This document shows, piece by piece, positions 2,250 to 55,904 of a DNA stretch of 64,000 bases. The stretch is from contig JAHISS010000087.1 of assembly GCA_018817905.1 (NCBI GenBank), positions 985 through 64,984 on the forward strand, read 5' to 3'. The notes beneath the pieces are model-generated. The model ran no database searches, was not told the DNA's origin, and saw only the letters and a program-made list of their open reading frames with translations. The DNA comes from Nanobdellota archaeon. GTDB taxonomy: Archaea; Nanobdellota; Nanobdellia; Pacearchaeales; GW2011-AR1. The position numbers were made by a program, and so were the translations under genes. The number at the start of each line of letters is the position of its first letter. The first letter of the stretch is position 1.

Positions 2250-2463
2250 TGTACAAATCCTCTTCCATTTCTTTCATCAGCTGTTCAGTTGGTTTGGAAA
2301 ATTTATGCGCGCCAAATAATTTTCTTAAATTTGGTTTGTGTCTTTGTATGAAAATGGTTATTTCTTGTCCTTGAACTGCCTTGGCTTTTTCAATTGCTTT
2401 TTGAGGCACAACTATGCCGAACGAGTTTCCCCATTTTCTCAATTTCGTTTTTATCTCAATCAT
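2242..2463 (-). CDS. vapB: AbrB/SpoVT-fold antitoxin VapB
   Basis: 73 aa. KLRKWGNSFGIVVPQKAIEKA is the SpoVT/AbrB swapped-hairpin signature. Overlaps the vapC start. Confidence 0.8.
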   Translation of the reverse strand: MIEIKTKLRKWGNSFGIVVPQKAIEKAKAVQGQEITIFIQRHKPNLRKLFGAHKFSKPTEQLMKEMEEDLYND

Positions 2464-2612
2464 GTATAAACAATATAATTAGATTATATAAACTTTTCGT
2501 TTGTGTTCTTAGTAAAAAATCTATCCCTAAAGAATTCAATATTCTTATTTAGGAAAATTGAGAAATAGCTAAGGAGATGGTTTTTTAAATAGCTAATACA
2601 TTCAGATATCTA

Positions 2613-3311
2613 ATGGTAAAAGCGTTTAAGAAAAGAATTCCAGAGCTTGAAGAATTGTTTGAAGATGATAAAATTACTAAGAAATTTGTGGAAAGAGATG
2701 CCAAATTATTTTCTAGGAATGGAAGTTCATATCACAGAGTTAGTAAAGATATTATGACAAATATAAAAATTAAAGAAGGAAAAGTTTTGGATTTAGCATG
2801 CGGATATGGGGGTTTGATAGGGACCTTACAGGAGTATATGGTAAATAGTGATCTTGTTGGAATAGATGGTTCAGAATGGATAATAAAATTAGCTAAAAAA
2901 ACTATTAAATCAAAAAATATTAATTTTAAAGTTGCTCGAGCTGAAAAAATTCCATTTAAAGATGAGTCATTTGATTTAGTTTTATGTAGGGATTCAGTAC
3001 ACCATTTTAAAGACCCAATAAAAATCTTTAAAGAAATGTATAGAGTTACAAAGAAGAGCGGTATAATTTACATTCTTGATTTGAGAAGGGATGTTCCTGA
3101 AAAATTAATTTATGATGGTTTATTAGAGTTTTTCTGGACAAACCCCACCTTTACTACAGAATATCTTTACTCAATTAGGGCATCATATACAATATCTGAA
3201 ATAAGAAAAATACTAAATAAAATTAAAATAAAAAATTATTCATTACATAATTGCAGAGGGATTTCAGATTCCTATTTTAGAACCAGGTGGAAATTAATAA
3301 TTAAAAAGTAA
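2613..3311 (+). CDS. class I SAM-dependent methyltransferase
   Basis: 232 aa. Motif I VLDLACGYGGL, post-I LVGIDGS, and FDLVLCRDSVHHF typical of the Methyltransf_11/25 type. Confidence 0.8.
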   Translation: MVKAFKKRIPELEELFEDDKITKKFVERDAKLFSRNGSSYHRVSKDIMTNIKIKEGKVLDLACGYGGLIGTLQEYMVNSDLVGIDGSEWIIKLAKKTIKSKNINFKVARAEKIPFKDESFDLVLCRDSVHHFKDPIKIFKEMYRVTKKSGIIYILDLRRDVPEKLIYDGLLEFFWTNPTFTTEYLYSIRASYTISEIRKILNKIKIKNYSLHNCRGISDSYFRTRWKLIIKK

Positions 3312-4970: not shown

Positions 4971-5118
4971 GTTATGGAAAGATTATAGAAAGAGGGTTTT
5001 AAAAGATTTGCCTGACTCCATTATCTCCCACGTGTTCATCGGAGATACTGGAAACAAGAAATAGATTTATATACTAAAGTGTCAGTATATTATTAAATAA
5101 ATGGGACTGTGTTAAAAA

Positions 5119-5394
5119 ATGGATAATCCAACATGGAGTGATATTTTCTCGTCTAATGACGTTTCATTAATAGTTGGTAAACAGCAGATGGAAGGATTTG
5201 TTAATGACTTAGGTAATGAGAAAGATGAAAGCGGATTTTTAATAGACTCAAATGATAAAAAGAGAGTGATTTCACAAGACGAGGATGAAATTAAACTAAA
5301 AGAATTGGGGAGCATTTCTTCTGGTTCTAAGATTTTTATAAAAGATAATCTTGCAAGTTATGCGGAGTTCTTAGCCCAGAAAAGAAGTTTGTAG
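5119..5394 (+). CDS. hypothetical acidic protein (91 aa)
   Basis: ORF opposite in strand to secY and the r-operon. 2-nt gap to the next ORF. No family recognised. Confidence 0.5.
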   Translation: MDNPTWSDIFSSNDVSLIVGKQQMEGFVNDLGNEKDESGFLIDSNDKKRVISQDEDEIKLKELGSISSGSKIFIKDNLASYAEFLAQKRSL

Positions 5395-5396
5395 CG

Positions 5397-6263
5397 ATGA
5401 CTGACGTTGTTTCTGTTGTCTTAGCTATTAAAAGTGTTTGGGAAGCAATAAAAGGAACACGAGAGTTAAAAAAAGTTGACCTGCCTTTAGCAATGAACGG
5501 AGAAGCTAGAAAAGATTTTCTAAACAACAATCCCAATTCTACCATAATCAATATAGCCGGTAATTGTTATATCGGAGATAAATCTCAAATAACTCAAGAA
5601 GAAAAGGATAAACTGAAAGAAATTTATAATCCAACAACACAAAGTGAAAAAAATTATGATATAATAGATACTGATTTTTTTGGAAGAATTCAAGAGTTCA
5701 AAAAAGAGCTTCCAGATAACAAGTCAATTAATCCTTTTCTTAAATTTCTTGAGCATGATTTAAGAACAATCTTGAATCTATCAATTTATTCAAAAAAACT
5801 GTTTGATAATAAAGAAGGAGAAAAAGCTCAAAAAGTTAGAGATGATATTGGTAAGCAGTATGGAAAAGGTGGAAGAAAACTTTGTAATTTATATCTTTCG
5901 GGTTATATAGATGGTATGACTGAATTCCTCATACAAGAATATGGGGACAACTTAGAAAAGGTGAAATCAGATATAAACAACAAAATAAGAAAATTTGTTG
6001 AAGATTCCGACTATATTTTTTTCGTACATTCCAGCTCAGATGAAAACCACATATTAAACAATATCCTAGAGTGTATTAATCAGGGCAGACCATACATCGC
6101 AATACATGGCGCTGGACCCACAAATATAAAAAAAGTCAGGAACATAATCTCAAAAATAGAAGGAGAACTTTCCAGTTTCGGATATGATAAAAATGAAGAT
6201 AATAAAAGAACACTTTCGCTCTGCCCTTTACTATACGTGTATTTGACAAAAAAGAAGATTTGA
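5397..6263 (+). CDS. hypothetical protein (288 aa)
   Basis: Long clean ORF coupled to 5119-5394. No motif recognised. Confidence 0.55.
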   Translation: MTDVVSVVLAIKSVWEAIKGTRELKKVDLPLAMNGEARKDFLNNNPNSTIINIAGNCYIGDKSQITQEEKDKLKEIYNPTTQSEKNYDIIDTDFFGRIQEFKKELPDNKSINPFLKFLEHDLRTILNLSIYSKKLFDNKEGEKAQKVRDDIGKQYGKGGRKLCNLYLSGYIDGMTEFLIQEYGDNLEKVKSDINNKIRKFVEDSDYIFFVHSSSDENHILNNILECINQGRPYIAIHGAGPTNIKKVRNIISKIEGELSSFGYDKNEDNKRTLSLCPLLYVYLTKKKI

Positions 6264-6394
6264 TTTAGAAGTTTATAACATTTCGCTGGTTCAATCTGTT
6301 TCCTTATGTAACTTTTCCATTTAAGAAAATACCTGTCTTTTACCAACTGCTTACGCAACAATGTAGCCTGACTCTAATTTCATGAAAGAATAAA

Positions 6395-7085
6395 CGTAAA
6401 CTACCGAGGGCTAAAGCCCTCAGCGTTTTAAGTTGAAAAATCAACAATTCTTTTTTGCATATCTTCGACAAGTTTAGGGGCTGAAGCCCTTTCCCAATGC
6501 TTGTCTTGACAGTCTTCAATGTAGTGCTTCATCGTCTCTTTGTTCACAGCACCGACGCTGCGGTAGAAATGTCCTCCACTCCAAAACTTATTTCCCCACA
6601 GCTTGTTTTTGAAAAGAGAGCTAAAGTGTCTTCGCATCTTGAAAGAACTGTAACCTTTGATTTGTCTGACAAGTTCTATCTCGCTGACAAATCTTACATT
6701 CGCAACAAACAAATGCAAATGATCTGGTCCAAAATTGTATGCAACCAAAACAACTTTCAGTTCATTTAACTTTTCCAGAATGCATGCAAAAGTTAATTCT
6801 GCAACTTGCTCATCTCGAAAAATCTGTCTTCGAAAAGCAGGAGTTAGCTGAATGTGAAAGTTGCTTTCACCGATAGCATTACTGCTCAGAATCAATTCCT
6901 TTTCCATTTTCACCTCCCGTAAGATTTAATTACGAGCAAGGCTACAGCTAACTGCTACGTGCAATGAGCTACAACCAGCTCATTGCTTATGTTCATTCAG
7001 ATTAGAAAAATATTACTGACTCGCTTTTGCGTCGTTGAAATTCAATCCGAGGGTTAAAACCTCACAGGGTTTCTTTCAACTGGCT
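6395..7085 (-). mobile_element. IS200/IS605-family insertion sequence (tnpA only); boundaries approximate
   Basis: Y1 transposase gene flanked by related subterminal hairpins CCGAGGGCTAAAGCCCTCA (6404-6422) and CCGAGGGTTAAAACCTCA (7047-7064). A perfect 10-bp stem hairpin GCAATGAGCT-acaacc-AGCTCATTGC (6961-6986) sits just upstream of tnpA. Confidence 0.6.
6428..6913 (-). CDS. tnpA: IS200/IS605-family Y1 (HUH) transposase TnpA
   Basis: 161 aa. FHIQLTPAFRRQIF, HUH motif DHLHLFV, IKGYSSFKMRRHF, and catalytic-Tyr region FWSGGHFYRSVG..ETMKHYIEDCQ. Confidence 0.85.
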   Translation of the reverse strand: MKMEKELILSSNAIGESNFHIQLTPAFRRQIFRDEQVAELTFACILEKLNELKVVLVAYNFGPDHLHLFVANVRFVSEIELVRQIKGYSSFKMRRHFSSLFKNKLWGNKFWSGGHFYRSVGAVNKETMKHYIEDCQDKHWERASAPKLVEDMQKRIVDFST

Positions 7086-7312
7086 CGTCCTAAAAACCAG
7101 ATTTGATTAATGATAATTATAGGTGTGGAATGAGAGATTAAAGTTTCTTTTCGTTATGACGGCAAGAATTATTTTCAATAAAGCCTCTGTCTGGGCCACA
7201 TCTTAGGACAAAGATTAATAGATAAGCCTTGTTCGGAGTTGATGGGTAGGGAGGTTATCTTTTTCTTTATTCCGAGGTCCAACACTTTGGCATCAATAAA
7301 CTGCCCAACCAC

Positions 7313-7380
7313 GATAGTCGTCTGGTTTATGAGATAATCATTTGGTGCTGGTGGTGGAACATATTTTTATTCAAGATAAT
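7313..7380 (+). repeat. dispersed intergenic repeat, copy A (about 70 nt)
   Basis: GTCGTCTGGTTTATGAGATAATCAT (7317-7341) is identical over 25 nt to 33951-33975. The following TATTTTTATTCAAGATAAT parallels TATTTTTGTTTAAGATAAAT in the other copy. Confidence 0.8.
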
Positions 7381-7772
7381 TATTTCCCAGAAACCAAAAT
7401 TTCCCCGCCGGCTTTTTTAACTTTGTCAATTGCCGAACTTGAAGCTGCGGACGCTTTTATTGTCAGCTTTTCCTTTACTTCGCCAAGTCCGAGAATCTTG
7501 TAACCCTTGAGTTCGATTTCTTTTTTACCTTTGAACTTTTCCACCAGGTCTCTCAAGTTTATTGTTTTCAGTTTTTTAGAGGGTTCTTTTCTCAAAGTTT
7601 TGTCTTTTCCAAAAGGATATTTGATTAAATTCTTTTTCTGGTCTGCTCGTTTTCCAGTTCCTGCTTTTCCAACTCCTCCCCTGTTTCCAGAACCTCTGGC
7701 TTTTTTCTTAAATCCTCTTGCAGCTGTGTGCGAACCGCGATGCCTTGTGTTTTTCTTTCTTTTTTTATTCAT
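7380..7772 (-). CDS. rpl15: 50S ribosomal protein uL15
   Basis: 130 aa. MNKKRKKNTRHRGSHTAARGFKKKARGSGNRGGVGKAGTGKR is the uL15 N-terminal signature. Last gene of the cluster. Confidence 0.92.
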   Translation of the reverse strand: MNKKRKKNTRHRGSHTAARGFKKKARGSGNRGGVGKAGTGKRADQKKNLIKYPFGKDKTLRKEPSKKLKTINLRDLVEKFKGKKEIELKGYKILGLGEVKEKLTIKASAASSSAIDKVKKAGGEILVSGK

Positions 7773-22755: not shown

Positions 22756-22895
22756 GTGTTGTGTTTACCATTTTGTTTTGGGTGCAACTCTCCCTGTTTA
22801 TGTAAATCTTGAGGGTGAAGATTCCTCTTGATTTGTATTAGATTCTTACGGGTTGAGATGATAATTGGGGTTTTTAAAACTTTGTGGCTTGAGAA

Positions 22896-27972: not shown

Positions 27973-28146
27973 TATTTCACAAACTCCACATTTTCAATCT
28001 TAGGGAAAATAATCCTCATTGAATTTCCATATTTTTTTACAAATTCATATGCCATGTTGATATCTATTATCGAAAGTATTTGAATTTTGTCATTTTGAAA
28101 AGAGATTAATAGAAAAGATGACTTGGGAATTATTGCACAAAAAGCT

Positions 28147-28245
28147 TTAGATAATTAAAATGGCATTGAACAGTAAATAAATTATCAAGGCGATGTATCC
28201 AATTACTAACAATTTGTTTAAAGTGTTAATTTGTTTTGATGTCAT
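28147..28245 (-). CDS. micro-ORF, 32-aa single-TM peptide
   Basis: Own translation MTSKQINTLNKLLVIGYIALIIYLLFNAILII. ATGA overlap with the upstream micro-ORF. GGAG lies 8 nt upstream. Confidence 0.4.
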   Translation of the reverse strand: MTSKQINTLNKLLVIGYIALIIYLLFNAILII

Positions 28246-28412
28246 CTTTTCTCCAACAAATTATACAAATTTATCAAGGCTCCGACAAAAACTCCGAAAG
28301 AGGCAATAGCAAAATCTGTAATTGCTCCTTCTTGATTAATCAGTTGTGATGCAAAATAAACTAATATTGAAAAATTCAACATGCTTCCGAGCCAGCTCAA
28401 GAACTCTCCCAT
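28242..28412 (-). CDS. micro-ORF, 56-aa two-TM peptide
   Basis: Own translation MGEFLSWLGSMLNFSILVYFASQLINQEGAITDFAIASFGVFVGALINLYNLLEKR. Starts immediately after the upstream micro-ORF stop. GGAG lies 11 nt upstream. Confidence 0.45.
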   Translation of the reverse strand: MGEFLSWLGSMLNFSILVYFASQLINQEGAITDFAIASFGVFVGALINLYNLLEKR

Positions 28413-28505
28413 TTAGATAACTCCAAAAGCAGATAAAAGGAGAAGGATTATTGCGATTACCCCTGCGATTATAAGAATCTTTTCTAGAATACTTTTCTTA
28501 GCCAT
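28413..28505 (-). CDS. micro-ORF, 30-aa single-TM peptide
   Basis: Own translation MAKKSILEKILIIAGVIAIILLLLSAFGVI. First of three tandem, abutting hydrophobic micro-ORFs. Confidence 0.4.
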   Translation of the reverse strand: MAKKSILEKILIIAGVIAIILLLLSAFGVI

Positions 28506-28783
28506 ATTAATCTATGTCTTGCTTATATTTAGATTTTTGCATTGGGAAAATATAAATATTTATCTTTTGATTTATTTGATTATCGGGCTGTTTGGCAGGA
28601 ATTACCTTGGGTGGATGATTTTGCCTTCAATAATCTTTGAAGAAGTTTTTGAAAGATGTTGTTATGCTTTTTCTAACAATCGTGTTGGGAATTTTGCGTT
28701 TGTGATATTGTTTTGGTTTGTTGTAGGGGGTGGTTGGGAAGATTGTTGGGGTGGTGAAGAGGAAATAATTAGTTGGTTTTTTA

Positions 28784-29083
28784 TTATGAATTCACTTGTT
28801 GTTTTCTTTGTTTAATTTTTCCAATGACCAAACCGATTAAAGCCCCTATTAAAAAATATGTTATTGGAGCAGTTATAATCCCAAAATATATCGGTCCAAA
28901 ACCACGCCAGCCACCCCCACTAATAGCAACAAGTAATAATCCATTTGGGACATTGAGAACCATTAACGGTCCGACTGATGGCATAATGCTATAAGCCGCG
29001 CCTAAAAAATATCCTAAAATTCCAACTAGGGAGATGCCTAGTCCAATCAGTCCTCCCTTTAGCCAAGTCTTCATAAAGAACAA
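28784..29083 (-). CDS. small Gly-rich polytopic membrane protein (99 aa)
   Basis: Three hydrophobic segments (GLIGLGISLVGILGYFLGAAY, LLLVAISGGGW, ITYFLIGALIGLVIG). No family recognised. Confidence 0.5.
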   Translation of the reverse strand: MFFMKTWLKGGLIGLGISLVGILGYFLGAAYSIMPSVGPLMVLNVPNGLLLVAISGGGWRGFGPIYFGIITAPITYFLIGALIGLVIGKIKQRKQQVNS

Positions 29084-29202
29084 ACGAATAAAACTATTAT
29101 AAATCTTCCTAAATAACCATCTCCTTACTATCTCTCAAATTTCTTTTATAAAAAATTATCTTTTCTTGGGGGACAAATTATTTACTAATCGTCCTGCTTG
29201 AA

Positions 29203-32296: not shown

Positions 32297-33877
32297 TTGA
32301 TTCTCATTGGCGTGGAAGCAAAAGAAAAAAGAGTTCGGGCGATAACAAGTCTTTATTACTCGAATCAGAAGGTTCAGCAGGCGATTTTAGAGTTTGCAAA
32401 AGATAGAGAAGTTGTGCCGCAGTATTTTGAAGGTTTTGGAAAGCGGCCTGACATGCTTCAATACCAATCTGACATTGATGGTTTGGTTAGGAAAGGTGCG
32501 ACGTCTTTTCATGCTTCTGAAGAGTTATGGGAAAATCCCTTGAGCCTTAATTCAGAAATAACGCAGAAAGAAATGACGAAGCTGCGAAAGGGCTGGGATT
32601 TGCTGATTGATATTGACTCGCCTTTTCTTGACTGCTCGAAGATTGCAGCAGGCCTTCTTATCGAAGCTTTAGAACAACATGACGTGAAGAATTATGGCGT
32701 GAAATTTTCAGGAAGCAAAGGTTTCCATTTAATGATTTCTGGAAAAGCATTTCCAAAAGAGTTTGATGATAAAAAAACAAAAGAAATGTTTCCAGACTGG
32801 GCGCGGGTGGTTTGTTCTTATTTGATGGATTACATCAGAAAAGATTATAATGTTATGGCGAGCGAAATTCTTACGGATTTTGATGCGATAAAGCGGCGGA
32901 CAAAATTAACAAAAGAACAATTGCAAGAAGTCAGGTGCAATAAGTGCGGCGGTGTTGCGAGAAAAGGTTCAATTGCAGAGTTTTCCTGCCCTGTGTGCGG
33001 GATGAACGTTAAAAGAAAAAATATCAAAATAACAAAACGAAGATTGAAGTGTTTAAGCAACGACTGCGCTGGAATTTTGGAAATTGGCGATAGTGAGGAA
33101 TTTTATTATTGCGAGGATTGCAAAGACCAAGAAAACGAAAACCTGCAGTTGAATTCAAGCAAGCATCCTGAAAATTTTGAAAAGTTCGAAGGAGTCAGCG
33201 CTGAAAAAGTGGCTTCGCTGGATTTGGTTTTAGTTGCTCCGAGACATTTGTTCAGAATGCCTTACTCGCTTCATGAAAAAACCGCCTTGGCAAGCGTTGT
33301 TCTTTCAAAAAATGAAATTGAAAAATTCTCTCCGAAAGATGCAGATCCTTTGAAAGTTAAAGTCAGGAATTTTATGCCAGAGAATGTTGAAGGTGAGGCG
33401 AAAAAATTATTGAGCAAAGCACTTGATTGGGGAAGGGGAAGGGAAATTGTTCAGAAAGAAATTGAAGAAAAAAGATACAAGGGGAAGAGTTTTGAAAATG
33501 TTGAAATGAAAAACATCAGCGAGGACATGTTTCCGCCTGCGATAAAAAAACTTTTGAAAGGTTTAGAGGAAGGAAGGAAGCGGGGATTGTTTGTTTTGAT
33601 TACTTTTTTGAAAGCAGTTGGCAAGACGCCAGAAGAACTCAATAAAAGTATCAGAGAATGGAACGAAAAAAATGAGCCGCCGCTGAAAGAAGGTTATGTT
33701 AGGAGTCAGATTGAATGGCATCTGAAACAAACAAAGACAATCATCCCGCCAAATTACAGCAATGACGCGTTTTATCGAGACATTGGAATCTTAGACAAAA
33801 AACCGAAAACGAAAAATCCGCTGGTGGATGTTCGGAGGAGGATGTGGGGGCGAAGTGGTGATAATCTGAAAAAATAA
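32297..33877 (+). CDS. priS: DNA primase: PriS catalytic domain fused to a PriL/PriX-like helical C-terminal domain
   Basis: 526 aa. WDLLIDIDSP (DxD), FSGSKGFHLMIS, and a Zn-knuckle insert CNKCGG..CPVCG. The C-terminal FPPAIKKLLKGLEEGRKRGLFVLITFLKAVG resembles a primase large-subunit helical bundle. TTG start at 32297, or GTG at 32312. Confidence 0.8.
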   Translation: MILIGVEAKEKRVRAITSLYYSNQKVQQAILEFAKDREVVPQYFEGFGKRPDMLQYQSDIDGLVRKGATSFHASEELWENPLSLNSEITQKEMTKLRKGWDLLIDIDSPFLDCSKIAAGLLIEALEQHDVKNYGVKFSGSKGFHLMISGKAFPKEFDDKKTKEMFPDWARVVCSYLMDYIRKDYNVMASEILTDFDAIKRRTKLTKEQLQEVRCNKCGGVARKGSIAEFSCPVCGMNVKRKNIKITKRRLKCLSNDCAGILEIGDSEEFYYCEDCKDQENENLQLNSSKHPENFEKFEGVSAEKVASLDLVLVAPRHLFRMPYSLHEKTALASVVLSKNEIEKFSPKDADPLKVKVRNFMPENVEGEAKKLLSKALDWGRGREIVQKEIEEKRYKGKSFENVEMKNISEDMFPPAIKKLLKGLEEGRKRGLFVLITFLKAVGKTPEELNKSIREWNEKNEPPLKEGYVRSQIEWHLKQTKTIIPPNYSNDAFYRDIGILDKKPKTKNPLVDVRRRMWGRSGDNLKK

Positions 33878-33945
33878 TTGGAAATAACTGTAAAACCAGA
33901 TTCACTAAATACGCAAACACCAATAATAAAAAACCGTTCAGCTAT

Positions 33946-34015
33946 GATAGGTCGTCTGGTTTATGAGATAATCATAAGGCTGTGGCTATTATTGAAGCTA
34001 TTTTTGTTTAAGATA
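33946..34015 (+). repeat. dispersed intergenic repeat, copy B (about 70 nt)
   Basis: 25-nt exact match (33951-33975) to 7317-7341 plus flanking similarity. Sits about 30-100 nt upstream of the surface-protein gene at 34047. Confidence 0.8.
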
Positions 34016-34046
34016 AATTTTTAAACATCTCCTGCTTGAAAATAAG

Positions 34047-36173: not shown

Positions 36174-36345
36174 TTAACTGCGCGTCATTGAGAAACAGAT
36201 CTCACCAACCAAAAAAATCATTATCAATAACACACATCATCCCATCTGATTCTGGTTGATATAATAATCTTTGGGGTGGGTGGCGATGGAAACAACAGGA
36301 ATAGGTTTCAGCAGAATTTATATAACTGAATTATTTAATTAGATT

Positions 36346-38076
36346 ATGAAAAAAGTTGTGATTTTATTTGCATTGGTTATTTTGCTTCCAATTGTTGCAG
36401 GGGTTTCTTCTGATTTGGCGGATGTTTATCTTCCTAAGGAAACAATGATTGGCGAGATTTCTGGAGGGATTTTAGCTTCGATTTCTCCTGAGCAAGTTAA
36501 AGTTGTTAGAGACGAACACATTGAGGTTGCAGTTGAGTATGGTGTTAAAAAATTAGGAAGCAAACATTACATCTGGCTGATTTCCCCAGAAAATCCAGGA
36601 AATTACACATTGAAAATAAAAGAGATTATCGCGCTTGTTGATGGAGTTCCAGAAGTTGTTGATTACTCCAAAGATTTCCGAGTTGAGGGCTTGGCTGATT
36701 ATTCGATTAAGCCGGGCTTTGTACTTGCAGTAGATGATTTTGAAATTGTTGCTACTTTGTATGAATCAGTTGGAAAGTCAATAACTGTTGATTTTCCAGA
36801 AAGCCGGGAAATCAGTTTGCTCCCTGGAATAAATTACATTGACTTTTCAATTGCAGAGATTGTTGGCGTTCAGGAAGTTAAAATTGGCGTTGGGAAATAT
36901 TCTGTTCCGGGATATGTTGTTGGGCAAGAATATATTTGCGGAGACGGACAGATTGACGGAAGGGAAGTTTGCGACGGAGAGAATCTGAATGGAAAAGATT
37001 GTGCGGGAGTTGGAGATTTTTCAGGAGAAGATTTAGCTTGTTCAAGCGATTGTTTAAGTTTTGATGATAGTGGTTGTGTTTTGTCAGAACCAGAACCTGA
37101 ATGTGATTTAGAAAACTTGGATTTGTGTTTAACAGAAAACGACTGTGTTGGCGTTGGAGGTTATTGGTATAATGAAAGCTGCAATGTTTACGAGCAAGGA
37201 GCTGTATGCGACTCTGAGCATGTCGGTCTTTGCGAAACTTTAGAAACTTGTTCAGAAGCTGAAGGCTATTGGTATAACGAGAGCTGCAATGAAGACTCTT
37301 GCGGAAACTTGGAAATAGACGCTGGGGAAGTCTGCGATGGAACCAACTTAAGCGGAGAAACCTGCTTTTCCAAAGGTTATGCCAAAGGAAATTTATCTTG
37401 CTCAAGCGATTGTTTAAGTTTTGACTTTGGGGGTTGTGTTGTTGGAACTGTAACGCCGTTGAATTTTGCAATCAACCCAAGCGTAATCAGAGACACAATT
37501 TTGTCTTCGGGACAAATTCCAGTTTATTCTTTTAAAATTATTAACTCTTGGGAAAATTCAATTAAGGATTTGCGCCTTGATTATGACCGAAGTAAATTTA
37601 CAGTTGAACCTGATGAGATTTTTTCTATTGGTGTGAATGAAAGCGCTTATTTTAATTTGACATTTAAACAAATGCCAAGAGGTGCTGCGAAAGGAGTTGT
37701 TGTTGCTTATTCTGGAGATGTTTATGAATATTTATTGTTTATGTTTAACCTGACAGATGATGAGGCGCAAGTTAGAAGAGAATATTATCAAAATAATTCT
37801 GTCAGCACTCCATCGTACTACTGCACTGAAATTCCTGACGGGAAGTTCTGCGGTTCTGATGAGAGTTGTTCTGTTGTGGAAGTTGCTGCTCTTGACGGAA
37901 TGTGCTGCGCAGGACAATGTGAAGAAGAATCTTCTGGCGGCGGAAGGGCGTGGATTGGTTACTTGGTTGCTGGAATTGTCATCCTTGTTTTGCTGATTAT
38001 TTATGTAAAATACAAAAAGACAAAGCCTGCGAAAGATCCCATGGGGGTGAGAGTTTCCCAGATTGAGAAGGGTTAG
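36346..38076 (+). CDS. cell-surface protein with duplicated Cys-rich (CGxGxxDxGExCDG) modules and a C-terminal TM anchor
   Basis: 576 aa with a signal peptide. Two ~47-aa modules, paired GYWYNESCN motifs, and C-terminal TM WIGYLVAGIVILVLLIIYV. Confidence 0.75.
   Translation: MKKVVILFALVILLPIVAGVSSDLADVYLPKETMIGEISGGILASISPEQVKVVRDEHIEVAVEYGVKKLGSKHYIWLISPENPGNYTLKIKEIIALVDGVPEVVDYSKDFRVEGLADYSIKPGFVLAVDDFEIVATLYESVGKSITVDFPESREISLLPGINYIDFSIAEIVGVQEVKIGVGKYSVPGYVVGQEYICGDGQIDGREVCDGENLNGKDCAGVGDFSGEDLACSSDCLSFDDSGCVLSEPEPECDLENLDLCLTENDCVGVGGYWYNESCNVYEQGAVCDSEHVGLCETLETCSEAEGYWYNESCNEDSCGNLEIDAGEVCDGTNLSGETCFSKGYAKGNLSCSSDCLSFDFGGCVVGTVTPLNFAINPSVIRDTILSSGQIPVYSFKIINSWENSIKDLRLDYDRSKFTVEPDEIFSIGVNESAYFNLTFKQMPRGAAKGVVVAYSGDVYEYLLFMFNLTDDEAQVRREYYQNNSVSTPSYYCTEIPDGKFCGSDESCSVVEVAALDGMCCAGQCEEESSGGGRAWIGYLVAGIVILVLLIIYVKYKKTKPAKDPMGVRVSQIEKG
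36937..37077 (+). repeat. intragenic Cys-rich module, copy 1
   Basis: CGDGQIDGREVCDGENLNGKDCAGVGDFSGEDLACSSDCLSFDDSGC. Shares the 23-nt exact string TCAAGCGATTGTTTAAGTTTTGA (37042-37064) with copy 2. Confidence 0.85.
37300..37437 (+). repeat. intragenic Cys-rich module, copy 2
   Basis: CGNLEIDAGEVCDGTNLSGETCFSKGYAKGNLSCSSDCLSFDFGGC. The 23-nt exact match lies at 37402-37424. Confidence 0.85.
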
Positions 38077-38223
38077 GGTGATTTTTTCTTCAAGTTACCC
38101 AAACCCACCACAAATCCAACTAATTCGATAGTATCCAAAACTCAATTAATGTGACATCCGATTGGTTTTGTTATTAATTTGGCGGATTGCTGCTATAGTT
38201 AAAACTATTTTTTTAAAGATTTT

Positions 38224-38730
38224 CTACTTTGACTTCTTTTTTGTTTTTTTAGATTTTTTAACTGGTTTGCTTTTTTCTGCTGGCTGTTGGACAGTAGCGT
38301 CTTTTTGCTTGAATAAGTGCGGCGCAACTTCTTGTAGTTTTTTTACAAGAACATCGCGGTCTGCCAGTGCTTTTTTTACAACTGCGTCGTAATTATGCAG
38401 CCTTTGTGTCAAGGCGTTTGCAACTTCGTTCAAATCAGCGTTTGTAATTGTTAGTTTTTCTGGATAAGTTATTTCTATGTGGGATGGCATATAAGCCAAC
38501 AAAATCCCGAAATAATTCGACAAAGATTCTAACTCTACATCGATTTCTGCAAATGTTGTGAAGAAATCTTTTGAACCTTCTACCTCTTTAGGTTCATGAC
38601 AGGTTTTGTTTATGATTTTCACGCCTTTTTCAGAGCCCATTTTTTCTACGAGGAGGTTTAGGGATTCTTTTAGATGATCTGGCGGTCTGCCCAGGATTTC
38701 CACAATCAATGATGCGTTTAATTTGTCCAT
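38224..38730 (-). CDS. hypothetical protein with Lys-rich C-terminal tail (168 aa)
   Basis: Clean ORF with a host-like Lys-rich composition. No family recognised. Confidence 0.55.
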   Translation of the reverse strand: MDKLNASLIVEILGRPPDHLKESLNLLVEKMGSEKGVKIINKTCHEPKEVEGSKDFFTTFAEIDVELESLSNYFGILLAYMPSHIEITYPEKLTITNADLNEVANALTQRLHNYDAVVKKALADRDVLVKKLQEVAPHLFKQKDATVQQPAEKSKPVKKSKKTKKKSK

Positions 38731-38830
38731 TGCTGGCTAAAGTTTAGGGAGTTTTTAAAAGTTAGGTTTGGAAAAATGATTGGATTGCCCGCATCGATAA
38801 ATTTATTAACCAAGAATAAATCAATCAGAC

Positions 38831-39040
38831 ATGGGACAAAAACAAATAACTCTTGAAGAAATCTATGCGGCTATCCAAAACTTACAGCGAGAGGTTCATG
38901 TTATCAGGGAAAATGTTGAGGAAACGGAAATGACTGACTGGGCAGAACAAGAACTTGAAGAAGCAAGAAATGAACCAGGAGAAAAATACATCTCGCTTGA
39001 AGATTTAGAAAACGAGATAAAAAATGACGTGGAAGATTGA
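38831..39040 (+). CDS. putative antitoxin partner of RelE (69 aa, acidic)
   Basis: Small acidic ORF overlapping the RelE start by 17 nt, as in the classic type II TA layout. Confidence 0.6.
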   Translation: MGQKQITLEEIYAAIQNLQREVHVIRENVEETEMTDWAEQELEEARNEPGEKYISLEDLENEIKNDVED

Positions 39041-39278
39041 ATTCAGTTCCAAAGCAGAAAGATTTCTAAAAAAATTACCAAAGGATATTTCCTTAAGAAT
39101 CCTAAACAAGTTTAAATTATTGCAACAAAATCCGTTTAGATTTTTAGAGCATTACGAAGGTGCAAATTGTTTTAAGTTTAGAATCGGAGATTACAGAGCT
39201 TTGGTAGATATTGATTTTGACAGAAAAATCTTGTTGGTAAGAGTTTTTGATAAGCGAGGAAGAATTTACAAGAGATGA
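39024..39278 (+). CDS. relE: RelE/ParE-family toxin
   Basis: 84 aa. WKIEFSSKAERFLKKLPKDISLRILNKFKLLQQNPF...FKFRIGDYRALVDIDFDRKILLVRVFDKRGRIY. Confidence 0.85.
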   Translation: MTWKIEFSSKAERFLKKLPKDISLRILNKFKLLQQNPFRFLEHYEGANCFKFRIGDYRALVDIDFDRKILLVRVFDKRGRIYKR

Positions 39279-39293
39279 TTTCACAAATCAATT

Positions 39294-44212: not shown

Positions 44213-44503
44213 AATGAGCTACTAAAGGGGATGCACCAAAAAATAAAATGCCACCAAAAACAAACAAGCAAAAAAGAGATTTAATATTTAATCTTAGATT
44301 TATCAATCACAAAGTGAAGCTCCCAACCGTAAAATCAAAAAACAATCGTTATCAACAACGCACATTATTGGATATGATAATCTTTGGTGGGGCAGTAGCA
44401 TTTGCCCAACTGCAACAAGCGGAAGGAATCTCTTTTCAATTAAATTTAGGGGGCGACAATTCCTCTTTCGGTTTCAAAACCGAGTATCATTGGTGTTGAT
44501 GCG

Positions 44504-54114: not shown

Positions 54115-54338
54115 TTTGATAGCATGCGCTATTGAAATATTGCCAGCAATAAACAACCCAGTAGATATCTCTCTGCGTGTCATTGAATTGTTTTGTAATA
54201 TTATTTGAAGAAATTTGGTGGCGCGGGTTGGGGAAATGAATCGTGCTATCTTGTGCTGTAACAAACGAGTTAATGGTTGTAACCTACAACGAGATTGATT
54301 TTGACAATCTTTATAAAGTTGCGTTCTTTAGAAAAATC

Positions 54339-55904
54339 ATGAAGAGGATATTGAGTTGTATTTTACTTGTAAGTGTTTTGTTTTGCATTCTTACGTTGGG
54401 AATTGTTTCTGCTGTAATAACTTGCGTTAATGGAGAAGACAGAATGTTTAGAATAAGCAGTGTTACAAATGCTCATGCGGAAAAATGGGTTCAAACTAAT
54501 TATGGTGAAGAGATTTGTTACGAGGATTATTTCCAAGGATATGGGAGTGGCGTGAGGGGCTGCGCTGGAGGAAATAAAATCTTGGGAATTTCTGGAGATA
54601 CAAATGCTCATGTTGAAATTCCTACCCAAAGTAATTATGAATCTGTTTGTTATGGGGACTTGACTTGTAAAGCAGTTCAAGGACAATGCAATGATACTGA
54701 CTTAGGAGTTGGAACAGATTACAGTGTGATTGTTTCGTTGGCTGATGAAGAAAACAGCCATGTTTCACTTGCTTATGTTTATCCTTACAGAATTTGTTGT
54801 AAGGGTCCGCATTCTCCGATTTGTAATTATGACGGTGTTTGTGATTATTTATCTCGCGGGGAAACAGCGCAAAATTGTCCTGACGATTGTGTTTGCGGGA
54901 ACGGACAGATTGACGCGGGAGAAGTTTGCGATATTGGAGACGACCCCGAAGATCCAAGTGATGATGTATTCACAATTCCAGGGTTTGATTGTACTGATCT
55001 CGATTACAGCAGTGGACCACTTTATTGTGCTGAAGGATGCATGAGTTATGATGTAAGTTCGTGTGAGGTAGAATGTGATGATGGAATTCTTAGTCCTGGG
55101 GAAACATGTGAACCTTCTCTTGATCCTGATGGAGCGGATTGTAATGATGCTGAAGGTTATCCTGGAACGCGGCAATGTAGTAATGTAACTTGCAATTGGG
55201 TTTGTGATACAGGTTTGTTTTGCGGAGATACAATTTTCACTTCTCCCCCAGAAGAATGCGAAATTGACGATGAAGAAAGTTGCGAAGAGCATGATTTTGA
55301 AAGCGGCCTAGAAGTAACTTGTGACGAAGATACGTGCAAGTGGGACACAAGCCAATGCGTTGGAAAATTAACTTTTTGTGAAAAACATGAACCATTTACT
55401 TACGAACATCCAGACGAAAGTGGAAATTATTTTTCTCCGATGAGGTGCGTTGAATACAATCTTGTTTATCCTGGTTCTAGTAAAGCAGAAGAAAGGGAAG
55501 AACTTTGTCTTGGCGACTGTGTCGCTGGCGCTTCTGTTCCTGTGAACAATGGCTATGCTGGGACAAATCTTTTTAGCTCTGGATGTGCTTGGGATTCTGA
55601 CGGAACAGATGGCGGGCAGTGTTACTTTTATTTTGAAAGAAACGAAGGAGATAGATGTAGGACAGATTTTGTTTCTGAAGCAGACTGCGAGCCAGATGAT
55701 TCATTTAGAGAAGTGACAATTAACGCGAGCGCTGTCGGCGGAGGAACTTGGACTTGTGATGCTGGCTGTGGTGAAGATACTTGCACTTCGCAAATCTATT
55801 GTCCAACAGTTATACGTCTCCCTTTCTTTGGTTGGGTGGCTTTTGTTTCTGGAATTTTCTTAATTGGAATTATTTATATGTTTAATTTTGCAAGAAAAAG
55901 ATGA
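54339..55904 (+). CDS. Cys-rich cell-surface protein with C-terminal TM anchor
   Basis: Track ORF trimmed to MKRILSCILLVSVLFCILTLGIVSA (signal peptide). Repeated SxxTNAHxExxxQxNY motif, CVCGNGQIDAGEVCD module, more than 50 Cys, C-terminal TM. Confidence 0.75.
   Translation: MKRILSCILLVSVLFCILTLGIVSAVITCVNGEDRMFRISSVTNAHAEKWVQTNYGEEICYEDYFQGYGSGVRGCAGGNKILGISGDTNAHVEIPTQSNYESVCYGDLTCKAVQGQCNDTDLGVGTDYSVIVSLADEENSHVSLAYVYPYRICCKGPHSPICNYDGVCDYLSRGETAQNCPDDCVCGNGQIDAGEVCDIGDDPEDPSDDVFTIPGFDCTDLDYSSGPLYCAEGCMSYDVSSCEVECDDGILSPGETCEPSLDPDGADCNDAEGYPGTRQCSNVTCNWVCDTGLFCGDTIFTSPPEECEIDDEESCEEHDFESGLEVTCDEDTCKWDTSQCVGKLTFCEKHEPFTYEHPDESGNYFSPMRCVEYNLVYPGSSKAEEREELCLGDCVAGASVPVNNGYAGTNLFSSGCAWDSDGTDGGQCYFYFERNEGDRCRTDFVSEADCEPDDSFREVTINASAVGGGTWTCDAGCGEDTCTSQIYCPTVIRLPFFGWVAFVSGIFLIGIIYMFNFARKR

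Follow-up and report, generated by a model that had tools for sequence, protein, structure and literature searches.

A modular family of short non-coding cassettes, confined to intergenic DNA and including head-to-tail arrays, was identified in a 64,000-nucleotide stretch of Pacearchaeota DNA (hereafter referred to as the window) and on other contigs of the same metagenome. Five of its units lie in the window, and ~25 more were counted on eight other contigs. On the best reading of the sequences, these cassettes probably multiplied within one Pacearchaeota population, represented by the metagenome-assembled genome (MAG) GCA_018815165.1 and by relatives that share JGI sample 3300014656 with it. 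The gene content of the window is archaeal: uL15 closes a long operon of ribosomal-protein genes, and the window also encodes a SecY with a Sec61-type plug, PCNA, and a primase in which PriS and PriL are fused, together with a type IV pilus locus; no tRNAs were found in the window.

Core sequence, architecture, and extent of the family

The initial annotation of the window had reported an exact 25-nt pair, GTCGTCTGGTTTATGAGATAATCAT. Both copies were recovered by a search of the window (7317–7341 and 33951–33975, both on the + strand), and no further match with up to three mismatches was found in the window or in 100 shuffled sequences, with 0 expected by chance. GATA(G) precedes both copies, with a 1-nt indel, and TATTTTT(A/G)TT(C/T)AAGATAA follows both, as had also been described. 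The similarity detected by blastn extends over 95 nt (7295–7385 versus 33928–34022, 73.7% identity), with the core identical at 25 of 25 positions compared with ~64% identity in the flanks. Uniform decay predicts a 25/25 run at roughly 1e-3 over the alignment of this pair, and the improbability of such a run indicates that the core, which contains a partial dyad (TTAT-N3-ATAA), is under extra constraint. Judged from these alignments, the 25-mer is the core of two homologous elements of ~125–160 nt and the best-conserved segment of a superfamily of short non-coding cassettes.

A 21-mer version of the core, TCTGGTTTATGAGATAATCAT, was found on eight further contigs of metagenome Ga0180007 (JGI sample 3300014656), none of which overlaps the window. 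One of them, L004, comes from the MAG that also contains the window, GCA_018815165.1 (window proteins 100% identical). The homologous genes of L001 and L003 are only 68–84% identical, indicating that the family is present in two or more related genomes, or else in two paralogous regions. Searches with profiles and all-against-all comparisons added diverged copies, a sister family (family 2), and arrays in which two to five units follow one another head to tail. Neither the 21-mer nor a degenerate form of the core had any match in 185,579 species-representative genomes. A viral or plasmid origin was rejected because a search of the IMG/VR viral contigs returned chance seed matches only, with no true match. 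No description of the cassette family was found in the literature on repeats of DPANN archaea or Pacearchaeota.

From 5′ to 3′, each unit consists of a G-poor, C/A-rich half (ACAAGTTACCC.., AATTATCCACAAATCCAA, or ATCAACAACACA), the AT-rich core (TCTGGTTTATGAGATAATCAT or, in family 2, GATTGATTTTATTATTAAT), a G-string, and a 3′ block composed of CTATTTTTT followed by (C)AAAGATTATATA. G makes up 8% of the 65 nt that precede the core and 45% of the 16 nt that follow it. The families differ in their 5′ blocks, namely ACAAGTTACCC in family 2, AAGTGAAGC..CCCAACC plus ATCAACAACACA in subtype 1A, and a TATA-like AACTATAAAT..TAATTCC.. in subtype 1B. The arrays (L001 1313–1905; L004 1460–1727 and 4439–4789; and L007 3082–3326) mix family 2 units with those of family 1A, and each junction reads ..GCTATTTTTTCAAAGATTATATAC-N-ACAAGTTACCC..; within them, AAAGATTATATAC precedes every unit and a T4–T7 run ends it. 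Chimeric or truncated units also exist, such as the family 2 unit at 2335–2469 of L002, in which ACAAGTTATCGGACGTGATAATCTTTGGGCGGG is found at the downstream end (element strand). The copies at L001 1328–1382 and L003 1868–1922, which are putatively orthologous, are 85% identical and their adjoining gene 84%. On another of the contigs, a tRNA-like sequence (L005 566–661, −) reached 31 bits with the tRNA-Sec model, short of the gathering score, and may be a long-arm or intron-containing tRNA missed by standard models.

Units in the window and the corresponding junctions in relatives

Membership in the window was assessed using HMMs trained solely on other contigs of the same metagenome, without window sequence. 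These independent models recognized exactly five members, all on the + strand (7258–7380, ~33858–34019, 36198–36296, 38089–38234, and 44313–44409); a covariance or HMM scan had been proposed in the initial annotation, and the profiles run on the window thereby gave a family beyond the single exact pair. Among the looser relatives listed in that annotation, those at 36251–36283, 38161–38193, and 44368–44392 were matched by the window-free HMMs (E 4e-6 or better), whereas those at 1801–1822, 7097–7128, 22850–22870, and 54192–54232 were absent or at noise level (E >0.5) with every profile. The sequence at 22851 fits merely a loose regular expression composed after the fact. Three independent HMMs flagged a possible degenerate relic unit, AATAATTATCACCAACCC..GGTTTATGCGAAAATGATTTTT, at 1775–1819 on the − strand, at E-values of 0.5–5.6 that are non-significant alone; it is co-directional with the flanking minus-strand genes and overlaps the putative copy at 1801–1822 on the opposite strand. 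PIN-domain genes adjoin repeat units twice, at 1881–2249 of the window (by this weak relic) and at 2570–2941 of L002 (region 2335–3098), an adjacency that may be a coincidence.

The junctions occupied by the five units were compared with those of seven syntenic Pacearchaeota loci (L009–L015, 113 kb in total). The primases encoded by L009–L012 are ~70–76% identical to that of the window, and the SecY proteins of L013–L015 are 83–87% identical to their window counterpart. No member of any repeat family was found in these 113 kb.

The first unit (family 1B, 7258–7380, +) lies in the gap between uL15 and SecY, where it is arranged tail-to-tail with uL15, in agreement with the earlier statement that this copy points into the 3′ end of the gene. 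It was detected by nhmmer at 7258–7380 (E 1e-28) and by the independent model at 7291–7370 (E 5e-13), and contains the core 25-mer (7317–7341), a G-string (7344–7357), and a T-run with a TATA-like 3′ block (7360–7385). The uL15–SecY junction measures 10–25 nt in the relatives (L014 and L015) and 2.4 kb in the window. The extra DNA (4971–7379) is made up of the repeat unit, an IS200 element, and two + strand ORFs (5119–5394, 91 aa, and 5397–6263, 288 aa) for which no Pfam, NCBIfam, or PADLOC match was obtained. SecY of the window has acquired its own TATA box ~37 nt upstream.

The second unit (family 1B, 33858–34019, +; nhmmer 33883–34019, E 3e-28; independent model 33889–34005, E 1e-15) is situated between the fused primase and a surface-protein gene, with its core 25-mer at 33951–33975 and its 3′ block, GCTATTTTTGTTTAAGATAAA, at 33997–34017. 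The distance from the primase gene to the next gene is 170 nt in the window and 23–65 nt in the relatives, which carry no unit and solely the native TATA box (GAAAG followed by TTTTTAAACATCT) at this junction. This box is kept in the window immediately after the insert (TTTTTAAACATCT, 34018–34030). At the other edge (33852–33877), the last codons and stop of the primase gene diverge from the relatives right after GAAGTG, which marks the left edge of the insert; the insertion appears to have replaced the C-terminal residues of the primase.

The third unit belongs to family 1A and separates two large surface-protein genes (36198–36296, with the feature extending to 36326, +; nhmmer E 5e-21; independent model 36214–36294, E 8e-13). 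Its 5′ block, ATCATTATCAATAACACACAT, occupies 36217–36237, and a diverged core with G-string occupies 36251–36283. These two genes abut in the relatives (TAA-A-ATG) and are 173 nt apart in the window. The following junction, between the second surface-protein gene (36346–38076) and a convergent gene, measures 148 nt in the window, where its tail-to-tail spacer is filled by a unit of family 2, a distant relative of family 1 (38089–38234, +), while the genes overlap or abut in the relatives. This unit, which matches five other contigs by blastn (nhmmer E 3e-38; independent model 38094–38230, E 2e-24), contains block 1 (TCAAGTTACCC, 38090–38100), the core (GATTGGTTTTGTTATTAAT, 38160–38178), and a T-run with a BRE/TATA-like block (38204–38227) that overlaps the stop of the convergent gene. 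Cys-rich coding repeats were additionally noted at 36928–37080, 37291–37440, and 54885–54931, shared both within and between the predicted surface-protein genes at 36346–38076 and 54243–55904.

The fifth unit (family 1A, 44313–44409, +; nhmmer E 3e-19; independent model 44327–44399, E 4e-6) resides inside the pilus operon, between two pilin-like genes that are ~12 nt apart in the relatives and 292 nt apart in the window. It comprises the 5′ end AAGTGAAGCTCCCAACC (44312–44328), the block ATCGTTATCAACAACGCACAT (44345–44365), a diverged core with G-string (44368–44392), and a T-run/TATA-like sequence, CTCTTTTCAATTAAATTTAG (44430–44449).

On parsimony, the units were probably gained in the window lineage rather than lost in the relatives. 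Four assemblies of the window population are identical across the units, and no presence/absence polymorphism was seen among them. Elsewhere in the window, two stretches (27973–29202, 1.2 kb, and 38731–39293, 0.56 kb) are unusually long and contain no ORF with a family assignment and no repeat units except a marginal match at 28565–28584 (E 0.38). A second, unrelated duplicated upstream module is present at 2509–2587 (+) and 29110–29188 (−), with 76% identity over 80 nt; it contains TAAGGAGATGGTTwTTTA and a TATA box. The module lies ~26 nt before two genes that are not homologous to each other, one for a methyltransferase at 2613 and the other a small membrane ORF that begins at 29083 (−).

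Promoter-like 3′ blocks, mobility signatures, and RNA folding

Promoters of this genome consist of (A)AAG plus TTTAAA/TTATATA located ~30–38 nt upstream of the ATG, as exemplified by AGATTATATAAA before 41711, and this spacing suggests that leaders are short or absent. The AAAGATTATATA sequence of the cassettes fits this native BRE/TATA pattern and is preceded by the conserved T4–T7 run. Oligo-T runs are signals at which archaeal RNA polymerase terminates. These motifs make the 3′ block a putative terminator plus promoter, the latter part resembling real promoters of this genome. In the case of gene 36346, the promoter-like sequence AGAATTTATATAAC at 36313–36326 lies 31 nt upstream of the ATG; in the relatives, this gene is operonic and has no promoter of its own.

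The initial annotation had offered three readings of the repeats: a promoter module for envelope genes, a small structured RNA family, and MITE-like repeats. According to the first, the repeat would be a shared operator/promoter co-regulating surface-protein and pilus genes, with the 25-mer bound by a common regulator. The partial dyad in the core and the promoter-like 3′ end of the unit (CTATTTTT..AAGATwAtA) are consistent with this, and genes for secreted or pilin-like proteins (34047, 36346, and 44504) lie downstream of three of the five window members, although the fourth copy thought to lie upstream of an envelope gene, that at 54192, is a non-member. The two remaining window members, however, face the 3′ end of uL15 and fill a tail-to-tail spacer, and the neighbours on other contigs are functionally unrelated: units follow genes for SerRS, an HAD hydrolase, and an AAA protein, precede an AspRS gene, border a PIN gene, or run antisense between unrelated genes, with an oxidoreductase gene also among the neighbours. 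Of the 18 loci scored, ~13 have the unit in the same direction as the upstream gene, and at ~10 of 16 loci the downstream gene is convergent or there is none. Moreover, the orthologous envelope genes of the relatives are entirely devoid of the element, and the native TATA box kept downstream of the insert suggests that gene 34047 is independent of the repeat. We therefore regard co-regulation of envelope genes as unlikely, with only a slim probability of being correct. A Fur-box resemblance of GATAATCAT and a bacterial extended -10 element were also considered; both identifications were rejected because the host is an archaeon and the neighbouring genes form no metal regulon.

Signatures of transposition were not detected in the units. 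Upon comparison of the first and last 35 nt of each window unit with several choices of boundary, 121–494 of 500 shuffles reached the best match for terminal inverted repeats, and local alignment of the junctions of 15 units or arrays yielded no target duplication or att-like direct repeat below 35 of 300 shuffles. There were no duplicated bases relative to the empty sites of the relatives, no end hairpins on the units, no transposase sharing the unit ends, and no transposase near the units on L004, L006, and L008. The sole IS in the window is an IS200 (~6390–7075) whose ends are unrelated to the units. Its tnpA gene (6428–6913, −), 350 nt from the 7258–7380 unit, scored 80.2 bits with the NCBIfam transpos_IS200 model (cut-off, 55) and 22.2 bits with REP_Tyr_transpos (cut-off, 80). 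The element is flanked by similar end hairpins, GAGGGCTAAAGCCCTC (6406–6421) and GAGGGTTAAAACCTC (7049–7063), which are absent from the rest of the window and from the loci. It is complete (6390–7075), and a Logan assembly of this organism is interrupted within it, pointing to further genomic IS200 copies.

The adjacency of this Y1 transposase gene to the 7258–7380 copy raises the question of whether the units are non-autonomous PATE/REP-like derivatives mobilized by the enzyme. The presence of all five window members on one strand is compatible with such an origin, as is the lack of terminal signatures, since IS200/IS605 elements likewise have neither inverted terminal repeats nor target duplications. 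Against it, the end hairpins are unique to the IS copy, the units have no stable hairpins, the score of the transposase identifies it as IS200 rather than a REP-associated enzyme, and the related locus L010 has a Y1 transposase yet no units. Nor do the units consistently follow one fixed tetranucleotide at the junctions examined. Joining the IS flanks rebuilds no unit, so that insertion of the IS200 into a unit was also rejected, and the possibility that the units represent an IS200 end was dismissed because the IS carries its own unique hairpins. Mobilization by this transposase is thus unlikely as well, and we consider it highly improbable.

RNA structure was evaluated at several levels. No match to the window was found in Rfam 15 at the gathering score, so that the Rfam search suggested in the initial annotation pointed to no family, and in a permissive search of the window region around the copies and of five loci nothing overlapped the units at E-values of up to 5–10. 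RNAalifold detected four invariant pairs in family 1, none in family 2, and no compensatory pairs. The folding energies of 25 units did not differ from those of dinucleotide shuffles on either strand (mean z-scores of -0.43 and -0.49). Finally, C-rich and G-rich arms of one unit show no pairing advantage over arms combined across units (-14.25 versus -14.25 kcal/mol; permutation p = 0.5), which indicates that their complementarity is compositional and not maintained in each copy. The C-rich tracts described earlier are accordingly real as composition, while the long imperfect hairpins attributed to them are unsupported by the folds, the RNAalifold pairs, the arm-pairing test, and the z-scores, and the same results speak against a small structured RNA family. 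Archaeal C/D box sRNAs possess C (RUGAUGA) and D (CUGA) boxes, ~12-nt guides, and C′/D′ copies; on inspection of the alignments, the core holds just CUGG..AUGAGAU and the unit ends carry no boxes, and no C/D family was matched in Rfam. H/ACA boxes were likewise not visible in the alignments. Split-tRNA halves, origin-recognition boxes, and integron attC sites were rejected, their defining motifs or expected genomic arrangement being absent.

The units may instead be genes for small, largely unstructured non-coding RNAs of ~90–120 nt with a functional core, expanded by gene duplication. Transcription would start from the BRE/TATA just upstream (the 3′ block of the previous unit or, in subtype B, AACTATAAAT) and end at CTATTTTTT, with the invariant core serving either to bind a protein or to seed pairing. 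Several features fit this reading: each array unit has AAAGATTATATAC before it and a T4–T7 run at its end, a TATA-like box is conserved among the subtype B copies ~95 nt before the core, and three subtype A copies begin with AGTGAA(G/A)C ~25 nt after a TATA-like box. In addition, the conservation is central and not terminal, the putatively orthologous L001/L003 pair has been kept at 85% identity, and the low G content of the 5′ half (8%) is as would be expected for an RNA kept single-stranded. The absence of an Rfam family, of a conserved helix, of a folding signal on either strand, of copy-specific pairing, and of C/D or H/ACA boxes counts against it, as do the single copies at 38089, at 36198, and on L003, which have no recognizable upstream TATA. 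The conserved unit also runs past the T-run into the promoter-like block, which is unexpected in such an RNA, and the absence from all close relatives would be odd for a housekeeping RNA. We retain the RNA-gene reading as the main rival of the one preferred below, though as a possibility on the doubtful side.

Nature and significance of the cassettes

The interpretation that we prefer, and to which we give about an even chance of being correct, is that the units are lineage-specific, proliferating intergenic cassettes of ~100–150 bp that bear a terminator and a promoter and behave in the manner of MITEs or REPs, while tests of membership place them in neither class. The units would spread by DNA-level insertion or duplication, the invariant core being a site recognized by the copying machinery or by a host protein. 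The T-run would stop the upstream transcript and the BRE/TATA would restart transcription of the next gene; because of this, the cassettes would be tolerated and would lie mostly co-directional with the upstream gene. Gene 36346 may be an example, having presumably lost its operon coupling and gained the cassette TATA at -31. Several observations nevertheless weigh against mobile cassettes. Neither terminal inverted repeats, target duplications, and end hairpins nor, in the sequences searched, an end-sharing transposase was found, and the central peak of conservation is unusual for transposon derivatives. The equal identity of the L001/L003 copies (85%) and their neighbouring gene (84%) suggests retention under constraint, arrays with a TATA before and a T-run after every unit fit a gene array equally well, and the lack of presence/absence polymorphism among assemblies also counts against proliferation. 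The mobile-cassette and small-RNA readings are mutually compatible.

Among known systems, MITEs of bacteria and archaea can bring regulatory signals to neighbouring genes (PMC10969869). The units resemble them in being short, non-coding, multi-copy, intergenic, and lineage-restricted, with empty orthologous sites in relatives, and the suggestion of MITE-like repeats proved the closest in behaviour of the three original readings. They differ in that terminal inverted repeats and target-site duplications were tested for and not found, no cognate IS was found in the window or on L004, L006, and L008, conservation is central, divergence outside the core is strong, and head-to-tail arrays are formed. 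REPs are short palindromes that form hairpins, and constitute persistent intragenomic populations of extragenic repeats associated with RAYT transposases (PMC8049555). The units share with REPs/REPINs the short extragenic repeats and a nearby Y1-family transposase gene; yet they have no conserved hairpin, and the Y1 enzyme here is an IS200 equivalog and not a RAYT. Putative mobile promoters were defined by ≥80% identity over 50–100 nt upstream of non-homologous genes (Matus-Garcia et al. 2012, PMC3488235). The family is similar in placing homologous promoter-like non-coding segments before unrelated genes of one genome, but the window pair falls below that identity (73.7% over 95 nt), many units are upstream of no gene, and the promoter-like part is the last ~20 nt of a larger unit.

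Intergenic repeats of the halovirus HF2 (58 and 29 bp) contain AT-rich promoter motifs that are active by reporter assay (PMC8707807). These, too, are archaeal repeated intergenic sequences with promoter motifs, the promoter role of the present units being proposed from sequence resemblance; the HF2 repeats, however, are shorter and viral, and their positions are conserved throughout a virus genus, whereas the units are chromosomal, 100–150 bp long, lineage-specific, and arrayed. The Correia elements of Neisseria are small interspersed repeats that can supply promoters, terminators, or RNA-processing sites to neighbouring genes; they are bacterial, with evident inverted repeats at their termini and a duplicated TA, neither of which is seen in the units. 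It is conceivable, but we think it less than probable, that the family represents an undescribed class of archaeal element, either self-contained genes, single or arrayed, for ~100-nt unstructured RNAs with a common invariant functional segment of 21–25 nt or a mobile terminator–promoter cassette that spreads with no inverted repeats, target duplications, or hairpins. If the latter is true, the operons of a streamlined DPANN genome could be divided by such a cassette without harm.

Repeat expansions are unexpected in DPANN archaea such as Pacearchaeota, whose genomes are very small and tightly packed. In the 64 kb analysed here, at least five gene junctions have been opened by cassettes, including uL15–SecY, the surface-protein pair, and the pilus operon. 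The family accounts for additional intergenic DNA in these MAGs and is a probable cause of some of their contig breaks, and the HMMs can be used to mark it. To judge from their sequence, the cassettes could halt transcription and start it again, and may thereby uncouple genes that are co-transcribed in relatives. If this is true, they would allow rapid rewiring of operon structure and of surface-protein expression in an episymbiont, and would offer a handle on a new propagation mechanism or a new class of small RNA.
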